Source: Rhizodiscina lignyota
Lineage: Eukaryota
Direction: 5' to 3'
DNA length: 64,000 nucleotides
Assembly: GCA_010015805.1 (NCBI GenBank)
Contig: ML978130.1
Coordinates: 558,001-622,000, forward strand
In this document: positions 32,938 to 36,030 of the stretch, one piece after another
Layout: each line of letters opens with the position of its first letter
Numbering within the stretch: the stretch's first letter is position 1
Notes under the pieces: generated by a model
Databases searched by the model: none
Seen by the model: the letters and a program-made list of their open reading frames with translations, nothing else
Told to the model about the DNA's origin: nothing
Position numbers and translations under genes: made by a program

Positions 32938-33857
32938 TCAGGGTCGAAGATCGCCTGCTCGATGCACTTTCGTCCATTCGAAGATCGGCTCGAACTTGCG
33001 ACAGTGTTGCAGGCCATCAAAGATTGGCGTATTCTTCTGGATCGCCTCATTCCAATGAAACGACACAATTGAGACGTCCCCGTGGCATGTCAGAACCTGG
33101 CGAAGATAGTCTGCGCAGTGGTCTGCCAACATTAGCGAGATACATTCAGTACGTATCATAAAGGGTACAAACCCAAGTGAGCGATCGCCTTCCGATCCAA
33201 CGCTGCGTTTCCCTTGCTACTCGCAAACATATTTCGACGAAGGGCGTCGACACAGTGAAGCTGGTGAAACATACCAACAGCAGCAAGGTATGTCCCCGGC
33301 TCCTGGTTCCACTCTACAGTCTGGTTCGGAAGCTGCGCTGCTTGATCACGGTCCAGCTTTATGATGCCAACTGCTTTGAGTCAGCATCACCTTCTACACA
33401 ATGGCTTTCCTCGGAGCCCAGGATCGTACCCTCTGTCAATTCTTCCCACGCTTTTGTGTTCTCCTCAGTGGGCTCGCCTTGGAACTGAGTTCTATCGTTC
33501 GCGAATCCTGTGGAGAAGAGACGATTTTCATATTCAACGAGACTCGCTAATGGAGCTTTGATCAAATCAGTCAATCAACAAACGAAGTATATTTAAGGGA
33601 GCTAAGGACTAACAATATATATCTAAGGTGTCGGTTCGGCTGGTGGATGTTCGCGAGAGCATTGTGGATAATATGAGAAGGACCCACATTCCGACGAGGA
33701 CAGCATGAAGAGACAGAAGAGGCCAATGCCATTTCCTGGATCCCCTGCTGCATTTTGAACACTGTGGCTCTATACGTTCAGACTCTTTACTCTCGATGTC
33801 GTTTGCCGTCTCTCGAAGAGGTGTGTACGTCCATTTTCGATCTTGCTTGGACTCCAT
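32938..33857 (-). CDS. DUF3328/UstYa-family oxidase #1 (4 exons, about 250 aa)
   Basis: Exons 33857-33614, 33555-33430, 33370-33173 and 33122-32938 (753 nt, in frame). N-terminal TM helix, YSPLASLVEYE, FQGEPTEENTKAWEEL, MFHQLHCVDALR, spliced HLDHCADYLRQVLTCHGDVS, HCRKFEPIFEW. Confidence 0.92.
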
Positions 33858-34314
33858 CTTCAATGATGAGCGATAGAAGCATTGACTGGAGAAATTTTGC
33901 ACAGAAATCCGAAGGCCGTCGGTATTCGCTCTCGAAAACGTTTTTGTAAAAAGCCGGAGTCAATCGAATTCTCCGCTTCAAAGCCACCAGCGACATCTAT
34001 CTCAGCAACAGCAATCATGCTGCAGCTCAGAGGACGAAACACCTTCTATATCGAGGATGAAAGTAAGCGCATCACTGGATCGCGATACCACTTTCAATCA
34101 ATCACGCATACGAGGACGTCGATCTCTGTCGCAACGGTTCCGTTAATGTAAGGTGACTTCACTCTGGACATGTTGTGGAATCGCTTTCGGCCCCAATCTC
34201 TATTTCTCGGTAATGTTGCTGTAAATGATTATGATGTAACATTGCTTCAGATGCGGAGTTTGATAAGGTGGCCATATACGTATGAATATAGAAGGGTCGT
34301 GCTTTGACTGTCAT

Positions 34315-34323
34315 GTATATATT
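34315..34323 (+). promoter_or_regulatory. TATA-like element upstream of the small secreted-peptide ORF
   Basis: gtatatattt about 115-120 nt upstream of ATG 34437, within the about 580-bp divergent intergenic region shared with DUF3328 #1. Confidence 0.35.
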
Positions 34324-34436
34324 TCGTCGTTCGAGCCCGTTGCTGCTGTCTTCCATCAAGCACCCTCATCTCAACAGACTTCAAGCACAACATAACTTGC
34401 TCTATTAAATTCGGCTATTCGAATCACTCTTCAATC

Positions 34437-34616
34437 ATGAAGTCCGTTGTCCAGATCTTCTTCGCCGCCCTTCTTGCCGCCGTTGCGGTCCAGGCAGCTC
34501 CGGTCGCCGAGGCTGAATTGAGCGAGGTCCTCAGAGTCAGGAGCGTGGATGGCGTCGAGTGCTTCGTCAAGCGTTCGGACGGCCTGTACGAGCGCCAAGC
34601 CACTTATGGCTGCTAG
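34437..34616 (+). CDS. 59-aa secreted peptide, candidate RiPP / Kex2-processed precursor
   Basis: MKSVVQIFFAALLAAVAVQA-APVAEAELSEVLRVRSVDGVECFVKR-SDGLYERQATYGC-stop. Good caatcATG context, C/G-ending codon bias, classic signal peptide, KR site. Absent from the ORF track, whose shortest entries are 60 aa. Confidence 0.8.
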   Translation: MKSVVQIFFAALLAAVAVQAAPVAEAELSEVLRVRSVDGVECFVKRSDGLYERQATYGC

Positions 34617-35304
34617 ATGGCAGTTATCATGATGCCGTGAGACAAGAGATCCATGACGTTCTGTATCTCCAGTCCACTGACGTTTCTGGGCAGATCCAAT
34701 GTTGCGGAACAGAGGAGAGTTCGGTAGTTAGGATACAGGGAGCTGATATGTAGAGAGATGGTTATGCAAGGTTACGTGAGGAGGTACTTCGTACTCGGCG
34801 GGGCCGTTTCGTTATAGGTGTAGATCCTTACTATACAGAATGAAGCGGGAGGTCCAACGCTGTCATATTGTAACCATTGCTGCATTCCGATTGGACGTTG
34901 ATGAATGCTTGTACGTTAAAGCTCGCTCAAGCTTACTTGGCCTGCGCGATTTCGCACAAGTGCATTGTACGTGCATCTGCCTGCCTGATATGGTAGTGCA
35001 GCTCGTGTCATTGAGGTACAGCCGTCACTAAGCGCGATACCACCATTGTCCTGGAACAGACCAAAGATAGCGGCAAGGTCATCGTATAGAGGTTGGACAA
35101 AATGAAAGCAAGTCTGACTTCGCACCTACCTTAGTTGGTTAACAATACCTACGTCAATGGAGTTGAGGTTGTCGATCCAACGACATCGTTCTCCGACGGC
35201 TAGATACCTCTCTTCGTCGTTTCGCAATCTTCGTTTTAAGGACTCGGCCAAAGTCCTTTAAATTTATTGAACTATGTCGTATATTGTTTGAACAGAAGAA
35301 AAGG

Positions 35305-36030
35305 ATGGTTCAGTTACAGAAATACCAATCCGTCTCGGGCTCCGACAAAGAACTGGAGGATGAGTCTGCAGATGCGGGTTTCGAGGCCGATATTCCTCCC
35401 CGCAAACGACGGCAAAAAATTTGGCGCTACGTTCACTTCATCGTCGATATCGCATTGGTTTTCACTGTTACTGCCTTGATATGGACGGTGTCTTCCTTGA
35501 TGTCTCGTCGATCATCTTGTGGAATAGCTCTTGGCCCGCATCCAGGCATCCCATTTCGCGATGTTACTTTCTTGCCGAATCTGGAATATGCTTCTGCACG
35601 AACATTTGAAAGCGAAAGCCACCTCCAAGAAACATTGCACCAATGGCTAGACCTCACGACGTATGGTCGCGGCATAATCAATGTCGGAGACGGTCGGAAA
35701 TATACGTCAGATCCACCATTGCAATCGTCTAGGACCGACAGCGCGTACATGATATCCGTCTTTCATCAGCTTCACTGTCTATCGCGGCTGTTGCAATCGT
35801 ATGGCGAGCTGTACCTTGGCTTGACACCTTCAGTCGATGCTGAACATGCCGCTCATTGTTTCGATTACTTGAGGCAATCGATCATGTGCGACGCCGATGT
35901 CACTCTTGAAGGCAACAACTCTGCTGGACCGGGCTGGGGCTCGACACATGTCTGCAAAGACTTTGAATCGATTCAACGTTGGGGGAATGAGATGGCGGCA
36001 CCGGTACGGAACGATACAGGCAATCTGTGA
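35305..36030 (+). CDS. DUF3328/UstYa-family oxidase #2 (intronless, 241 aa)
   Basis: N-terminal TM helix, YMISVFHQLHCLSRL, HAAHCFDYLRQSIMCDADVTLEG, GWGSTHVCKDFESIQRW. Confidence 0.93.
   Translation: MVQLQKYQSVSGSDKELEDESADAGFEADIPPRKRRQKIWRYVHFIVDIALVFTVTALIWTVSSLMSRRSSCGIALGPHPGIPFRDVTFLPNLEYASARTFESESHLQETLHQWLDLTTYGRGIINVGDGRKYTSDPPLQSSRTDSAYMISVFHQLHCLSRLLQSYGELYLGLTPSVDAEHAAHCFDYLRQSIMCDADVTLEGNNSAGPGWGSTHVCKDFESIQRWGNEMAAPVRNDTGNL

Follow-up and report, generated by a model that had tools for sequence, protein, structure and literature searches.

The wood-dwelling fungus Rhizodiscina lignyota (Dothideomycetes, Aulographales) is the source of the DNA considered here, a stretch of 64,000 nucleotides (the window; contig ML978130.1 of assembly GCA_010015805.1, positions 558,001 to 622,000 of the forward strand) that is fungal in character and has a GC content of 0.50. 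At positions 32938..36030 of the window an open reading frame (ORF) of 59 codons sits between two genes encoding proteins of the UstYa/DUF3328 family, referred to below as UstYa#1 and UstYa#2. A first-pass annotation of the same DNA had placed this triad at these coordinates, and the gene models bear it out. The small ORF, the family to which it belongs and its relationship to the two enzymes are the subject of this report. The principal features of the locus are these:

32938..33857, minus strand: UstYa#1, 250 amino acids (aa), in four exons (33857-33614, 33555-33430, 33370-33173, 33122-32938)
33858..34436: divergent promoter region common to UstYa#1 and the peptide gene, about 580 bp between start codons
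34437..34616, plus strand: candidate 59-aa prepropeptide gene, an unannotated ORF with its stop codon at 34614-34616
35305..36030, plus strand: UstYa#2, 241 aa in a single exon, identical to public protein P0001

The peptide gene is thus divergent from UstYa#1, and UstYa#2 begins 688 bp past the stop codon of the peptide gene. The public proteins that correspond to the two enzymes, P0105 (UstYa#1) and P0001 (UstYa#2), are encoded on one 1.34-Mb contig.

The peptide gene and its conserved unit

Codon usage in the peptide ORF is gene-like. Its log-odds score, for which 16 ORF segments of the window with Pfam support served as training set, is 0.180 per codon, which ranks fifth among the window's 315 ATG-initiated ORFs of 40-110 aa (at least two of the four that outrank it lie inside real genes) and stands at the 62nd percentile of 59-codon windows taken from true genes; the other two frames over the same DNA score -0.47 and -0.25 per codon. 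The GC content at third codon positions (GC3) is 0.76, compared with 0.52 in the training genes. The N-terminus resembles a signal peptide, with a hydrophobic core at residues 7-18 (Kyte-Doolittle hydropathy 2.9) and V-Q-A immediately before the predicted cut; of 488 ATG ORFs of 30-150 aa, only the peptide ORF and seven others pass a crude signal-peptide filter, and known genes account for at least three of those seven.

The peptide has no match in Pfam. A word-index protein search (proteins of 32-104 aa) returned nothing, the peptide itself included, and phmmer, run exhaustively over 1.84 billion representative proteins, likewise gave no self match, from which it follows that the ORF is unannotated. 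The phmmer search did find two homologues: P0106, a 92-aa protein whose alignment takes in residues 1-59 (62% identity, E = 7.3e-18), and P0107, of 72 aa, which aligns with residues 29-56, outside the signal peptide (E = 3.7e-4). P0106 and P0107 come from Logan contigs of 2,978 and 55,442 bp, respectively. The alignment of all three proteins runs from start codon to stop of the peptide gene, and because homology extends to the stop codon the 59-aa reading is correct. (A candidate intron within the ORF, with its donor, GTACGA, near 34586 and its acceptor near 34693, was considered and discarded: the residues downstream of the donor align with both homologues to the stop.) Contigs assembled from X1, a DNA-like sequencing run that may be the source data and is not an independent witness, are identical to the window over 32500-36500. 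On the strength of its codon usage, its signal-like N-terminus and, decisively, its homologues, we consider the 59-aa ORF to be very probably a real gene that has gone unannotated. The first-pass annotation, which had proposed a genuine small gene, missed by gene callers, is upheld on this point; the peptide starts with a predicted signal peptide and contains a dibasic site.

The peptide gene divides into the following parts:

34437-34496, plus strand: predicted signal peptide, residues 1-20
34497-34574, plus strand: putative propeptide, residues 21-46, ending in KR
34575-34613, plus strand: C-terminal 13-mer, following KR
34560..34613, plus strand: conserved unit Cys42..Cys59 (C-F-V-K-R-S-D-G-L-Y-E-R-Q-A-T-Y-G-C), from the five-unit alignment and a regular expression

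The unit occurs twice each in P0106 and P0107 and once in the window gene, and the five copies in three proteins share the consensus C-[FL]-x-[KR]-R-[SA]-D-G-[LN]-[FY]-E-R-x(3-6)-C. Both Cys residues, the dibasic pair, D-G and E-R are invariant in all five, so that the unit, 18-20 residues long, is bracketed by Cys and has its dibasic site inside. Every homologue unit carries KR or RR, P0106 has one extra KR between its units, and the N-termini of P0106 and P0107 are themselves signal-peptide-like. Repeated KR- or RR-bearing units behind a signal peptide constitute the architecture of Kex2-processed precursors; judged from this alignment, the window gene belongs, with its single unit, to a small and so far undescribed family built in that manner. 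The earlier designation of the gene as a Kex2-type precursor is in this way strengthened by its homologues. The core that had been proposed, SDGLYERQATYGC, does lie within the conserved unit; it is only a part of it, since the unit begins at Cys42, ahead of the KR. A tblastn search with the 59-aa peptide, which had been suggested as a check, recovered only its own gene from the window and from the 80 UstYa-bearing metagenome loci that are described below. Searching the literature for the words of the unit motif led to no relevant paper and to no description of the family, and the motif is absent from three supplementary text files of Umemura 2020; preprint supplements and further parts of the Umemura tables could hold related entries.

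The homologues also bear on an objection to all that follows, which is that the ORF is not expressed, being either a chance ORF or the decayed remnant of a two-unit precursor, and that the UstYa genes on either side are orphans. Its lack of public annotation, its single unit where its relatives have two, and the fact that the only run listed as containing the stretch is the DNA-like X1, with no RNA run among them, would all fit such an account. A decayed or accidental ORF would hardly be intact from start to stop, 62% identical to P0106 along its full length, gene-like in codon usage with a GC3 of 0.76, and in possession of every invariant residue of the unit; we regard this explanation as very improbable.

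The two UstYa/DUF3328 enzymes and their relatives

Both flanking proteins belong to the DUF3328 family and carry twin HxxHC motifs, as had been claimed for them. UstYa#2 matches PF11807 over profile positions 3-219 of 220 (E = 1.8e-32; 113.4 bits, for a cut-off of 25), the last exon of UstYa#1 does so by itself (E = 2e-14; 54.4 bits, same cut-off), and the public models P0105 and P0001 both carry a precomputed PF11807 assignment. In the splice model of UstYa#1 the introns are 58, 59 and 50 nt long and all are GT..AG. Its motifs are HQLHC at residue 159 and HLDHC at residue 188, the codons of the latter being split by intron 3, so that the motif is indeed formed by splicing, as the first-pass annotation had it; those of UstYa#2 are HQLHC at residue 154 and HAAHC at residue 181. 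The HxxHC columns are invariant in the alignments of each enzyme's homologues, and so is a pair of Cys residues past the second motif (Cys195/Cys217 in UstYa#2; Cys137/Cys165 in the numbering of P0105). A Cys pair past the second motif of CctR, perhaps the equivalent one, is described as forming inter-subunit disulfides. Each enzyme has one hydrophobic helix, at residues 47-65 in UstYa#1 and 45-63 in UstYa#2, as called from hydropathy alone and with no orientation assigned (19-residue window, Kyte-Doolittle mean above 2). The public model of UstYa#1, P0105, is 185 aa long; it has the same three introns and starts at Met66, dispensing with the N-terminal tail and the sole membrane helix, a difference that falls at 33659-33857 on the minus strand. 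An upstream in-frame ATG at 33857 yields the 250-aa protein, which fits the family better because the P0105 start removes the only hydrophobic helix. Exon 3 of UstYa#1 is 100% identical to P0105, and a homologue search with that exon alone returned only the self match. UstYa#1 and UstYa#2 are 28% identical over 144 aa and are therefore old paralogues, not the products of a fresh duplication. By likeness, UniRef labels UstYa#1 'Cyclochlorotine biosynthesis protein O'; for UstYa#2 no homologue above 39% identity was found in a search requiring shared 5-residue words.

Recent work has established DUF3328/UstYa proteins as binuclear-copper oxidases acting on inert C-H bonds, which they functionalise, with two coppers per monomer at HxxHC(x)nHxxHC and a need for O2 and electrons; copper- and O2-dependent activity is established for CctR, ApnU and AprY, the last of these being a cyclase. 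The part of the same source drawn on here describes them as membrane-anchored, disulfide-linked dimers with a lumenal catalytic domain, residing in the Golgi, endosomes and vacuole (PMC12435403).

For the genomic context of UstYa relatives we turned to a reference set of 80 metagenome loci that encode them (545 kb in all). A scan for ORFs rich in both repeats and KR picked out two loci, independent of each other, at which a classic precursor adjoins UstYa genes: L059 and L078 (of which L079 is a near-copy). L059 has four UstYa genes, with the precursor between two of them (UstYa-precursor-UstYa). In detail, the L059 cluster spans 7494-13211; its minus strand carries the signal-peptide exon of the precursor (9082-9255) and, at 8676-9164, the units, which end in KKKR. 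The cluster looks like an undescribed one of dikaritin type. In L078 the precursor is divergent from its UstYa gene, with about 1.15 kb between start codons; the pair occupies 5519-8546, and consists of Trp-rich units ending in KK[KR]R with a signal peptide near 6190 (minus strand) and a two-exon UstYa gene at 7348-8546 (plus strand), one of the genes most closely related to UstYa#1 within the sample.

It is UstYa#1, in particular, that resembles the enzymes of these precursor-bearing loci. In tblastn it matches 71 of the 80 loci, and its best matches are L059, L079 and L078, precisely the three with precursors. A maximum-likelihood tree was built from 64 UstYa domains, comprising 62 of the 85 locus genes (those with a stop-free match of at least 95 aa and HxxHC) and the two window proteins. 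In it UstYa#1 groups with the L059 gene L059_g3 and with L078/L079 (support 92/98), on long branches; the grouping holds when either partner is left out (values of 90 and 91 in the Shimodaira-Hasegawa-like approximate likelihood ratio test). The other L059 gene in the tree, L059_g1, falls outside this group. The genomic context speaks for UstYa#1 as an enzyme linked to a precursor, and for UstYa#2 it does not decide. UstYa#1 would be the likelier partner of the peptide because it shares a promoter region with the peptide gene and because it groups with precursor-linked relatives.

A possible substrate relationship, and the readings that compete with it

With moderate confidence, we interpret the locus as a three-gene dikaritin-type unit, in which UstYa#1, and perhaps UstYa#2 as well, would oxidise the peptide, and the chain would be cleaved behind K45-R46. 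The prepropeptide would enter the endoplasmic reticulum by way of its signal peptide of about 20 residues, and the propeptide would meet one or both of the membrane-anchored, lumen-facing, binuclear-copper UstYa proteins in the secretory pathway. Enzyme and secreted propeptide would share compartments, since DUF3328 proteins are found in the Golgi, endosomes and vacuole and the secretory route crosses these. The UstYa proteins would oxidise C-H bonds of the unit, generating a side-chain cross-link, a hydroxylation or a related change, and UstYa#2 may add a second step. A Kex2-type protease would then cut after K45-R46 and free the modified 13-mer. Kex2 acts in the late Golgi. The Cys42-Cys59 disulfide, if it forms, would keep the 13-mer tied to the propeptide; the conserved Cys pair may thus serve as a disulfide that holds both pieces, or it may itself be part of the chemistry. 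The first-pass annotation had already spoken of a self-contained RiPP (a peptide made on ribosomes and modified after translation) locus, a description drawn solely from the adjacency of the genes.

A number of observations tell against this three-gene interpretation. More than one UstYa gene is present at only 3 of the 80 reference loci, and stretches within 2.5 kb of UstYa homologues show no excess of small ORFs with signal-peptide-like N-termini (1.57 per 10 kb, compared with 1.37). The unit itself was found by tblastn, regular expression and a unit hidden Markov model nowhere else in the window, nor in the metagenome loci with UstYa genes, 545 kb in extent. A single unit and a single KR are all that the window gene has, which is not the repeat structure by which precursors of the dikaritin and Kex2-processed kinds are recognised. 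The sequencing runs, as already mentioned, offer no RNA. The Cys pair could merely form a disulfide, and DUF3328 enzymes also act on non-ribosomal products, cyclochlorotine for example (PMC12435403). One form of the proposed chemistry is weakened more directly: the aromatic residue that follows D-G-x is Phe in 2 of the 5 units, which leaves no room for a phenol-oxygen ether as a requirement there, although the first-pass annotation had named Tyr-ether cross-links as typical of the class. UstYa#2, finally, is in the tree sister (98/90) to a large and well-conserved clade whose members mostly stand alone. At eight loci of that clade the ORFs that were scanned (101 of 159, without L051 and without ORFs that overlap the UstYa gene or, as judged by eye, a longer ORF) include no shared neighbour family and no biosynthetic neighbours. 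None of the listed homologues of UstYa#2 lies on a contig of the size of P0106's or P0107's, in a comparison that is weak and needs 5-residue words.

The most serious competitor is that the peptide is genuine, secreted and Kex2-processed and/or disulfide-looped, for example with a role in signalling, as an antimicrobial or as a two-chain product, that it is not a UstYa substrate, and that its adjacency to the two enzyme genes is without functional meaning. A Cys pair brackets every unit; the family was detected by its own sequence alone, with no linked enzyme seen; the UstYa#2 clade stands alone elsewhere; and 68% of DUF3328 genes are reported to lie more than 15 genes from a repeat precursor (PMC7329392). 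The ESM Atlas look-alikes of P0106, moreover, include an alpha-factor precursor cluster at 0.82, although all are below 0.9 and this is a lead only. On the other side, we estimate (the figure was not computed on the genome) that a random gene would be very unlikely to have UstYa genes on both sides, the peptide gene has its promoter region in common with UstYa#1, and UstYa#1 groups with precursor-linked UstYa genes; in the part of the survey drawn on here, precursor genes of mating factors and pheromones are almost never found with DUF3328 genes (PMC7329392). An explanation without a substrate relationship is, in our estimate, possible and rather doubtful.

A narrower version of the three-gene proposal would retain UstYa#1 as the partner of the peptide and treat UstYa#2 as a bystander from the stand-alone clade. 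The divergent promoter is common to the peptide gene and UstYa#1 only, the tree divides the two enzymes in the same sense, the one with precursor-linked genes and the other with the stand-alone clade, and a single DUF3328 protein is what asperipin-2a is reported to require (PMC7329392). Against it stands the long, divergent branch of UstYa#2 (length 0.92, with no more than 39% identity to any homologue), which would fit recruitment to a new role. An 11-mer, CGCGATACCAC, points in the same direction as that branch. It occurs exactly twice on the plus strand, at 34081-34091, upstream of the peptide gene, and at 35033-35043, 262 bp upstream of the UstYa#2 start, and in the 64 kb exact copies stand upstream of these two genes only; a copy with one mismatch lies at 36577-36587 (plus strand), upstream of the cupin gene that is next in line. 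These are its only three matches with at most one mismatch in the 64 kb, and three matches were reached in 3 of 100 shuffles. As a pattern spotted after the fact it is a weak hint of a shared regulatory site, and a correspondingly weak argument for joining UstYa#2 to the peptide gene. We think it unlikely that UstYa#1 alone is involved. As to the clade of UstYa#2's relatives, its members (P0002-P0075; loci L001-L033) are proteins of about 245 aa from Xylariales, Sordariales, Helotiales and Eurotiales, and constitute a widespread stand-alone UstYa type.

Beyond the triad, the window was surveyed through a Pfam scan of 85 of its 112 ORFs of at least 110 aa (26 of the others overlap longer ORFs, by eye, and the last is the UstYa#2 ORF). 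The nearest gene is:

37044..37478, plus strand: Cupin_2 gene, starting at ATG 37044, directly downstream and about 1 kb past UstYa#2

The cupin gene may be part of the same unit as the triad. No non-ribosomal peptide synthetase (NRPS), polyketide synthase (PKS), tyrosinase or methyltransferase is among the 85 ORFs, which extends to the whole window what had been claimed for the immediate neighbourhood of the triad. Some 7.6 kb away lies an amino-acid permease, the closest transporter, and this permease, two cytochrome P450s and a multicopper oxidase lie 6-25 kb from the triad; of the families on which the older five-gene definition of dikaritin clusters turned (tyrosinase, methyltransferase, transporter, peptidase), none apart from that permease was found among the scanned ORFs. 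An expansin-like gene, two HET genes and a GMC oxidoreductase gene are also found. A SesA/NACHT gene and the two HET-domain genes (10173-13475, 39447-41358 and 46874-49135) are of types commonly met in fungal regions of non-self recognition, and such regions often vary and are often specific to a lineage. A further ATG ORF of 39 aa, at 54450-54569 on the minus strand, has an N-terminus strongly resembling a signal peptide and is overlain by no gene with Pfam support; it may represent exon 1 of a secreted protein that has escaped annotation.

Comparison with known clusters, and significance

The class-defining enzyme of dikaritin clusters is one or more DUF3328 proteins with two HxxHC motifs, which is what flanks the peptide gene here; the precursors are defined by their repeats, a point that counts against assigning the present gene to the class; and later definitions, in the part of the source drawn on here, drop the requirement for tyrosinase, methyltransferase, transporter and peptidase (PMC12048977). 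A study of lichen RiPPs has speculated on single-core precursors, none being found in what it reports of them. We regard the locus as a plausible addition to the RiPP clusters of dikaritin type, with the qualification that its single-unit gene lies outside the strict, repeat-based definition.

The founding dikaritins, ustiloxin (UstA, UstYa, UstYb) and phomopsin, resemble the present locus in having more than one UstYa protein with twin HxxHC motifs beside the precursor, and a precursor with a signal peptide (a predicted one in the present case), KR sites and an aromatic residue in the conserved unit. They differ in that a core of 4-6 residues is repeated many times and that tyrosinase and further tailoring enzymes are reported to be needed; the window gene, by contrast, has one Cys-bracketed unit in the 18-20-residue class with an internal dibasic site, and no tyrosinase, methyltransferase or transporter is adjacent. 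Asperipin-2a (AprA, AprY) offers a parallel in the economy of its cluster, in which, according to published accounts, DUF3328 chemistry alone makes the cross-links and one such protein suffices. AprA is a multi-repeat protein, however, and the unit described here, which includes Cys, does not resemble it in sequence. The core of AprA is Tyr-rich. CctR and CctO of the cyclochlorotine pathway belong to the same enzyme family and share its topology, but work, next to an NRPS, on a cyclic peptide of non-ribosomal origin; no NRPS was found among the scanned ORFs of the 64-kb window.

Similar in arrangement are the Kex2-processed repeat proteins (KEPs) with DUF3328 neighbours, as at L059 and L078/L079, which have a signal peptide, units with KR or RR and a direct, often divergent, UstYa neighbour; being defined and mined by their repeats, they form a class from which a one-unit gene escapes. 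In a published survey DUF3328 genes peak at the position adjoining KEP genes, and 1,758 of 7,878 KEP genes (22%) have a DUF3328 gene within 15 genes (PMC7329392). Because so many KEPs with DUF3328 neighbours have been predicted (Umemura 2020), the kind of locus is already known, and it is as one of this known kind of fungal peptide cluster that the present locus is probably to be filed. What is new is the putative precursor family, with its Cys-bracketed unit, internal dibasic site and one or two copies, encoded here by a gene that is small and unannotated.

Most DUF3328/UstYa enzymes have no known substrate. If the interpretation given above is true, a three-gene unit with a 59-residue precursor would rank among the smallest systems for UstYa chemistry on a peptide. 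The precursor having escaped both annotation and repeat-based mining, a search for the partners of orphan UstYa genes might begin by scanning their flanks for short, codon-biased ORFs with signal peptides and continue by comparing these with very large protein sets. Such products would be of interest for bioactivity and for food safety, since some known members are mycotoxins: ustiloxins and phomopsins poison microtubules (PMC7329392).

One might go further, and suppose that very short DUF3328 precursors with one or two units, missed by gene callers and by repeat mining alike, constitute a sub-class of their own, in which the Cys pair and the dibasic site within its loop take part in the chemistry. 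A cross-link could then be made through Cys or through an aromatic beta-carbon, and a Kex2 cut within the loop would yield a two-chain or lariat product. We put this forward as a speculation that is more probably wrong than right, and quite unlikely to apply as stated. Of 9,399 DUF3328 genes that were counted, only 31.8% have a repeat-type precursor within 15 genes (PMC7329392). Were a separate sub-class of this sort general, unannotated mini-precursors could be the substrates for many of the approximately two thirds of DUF3328 proteins that have no repeat precursor nearby.

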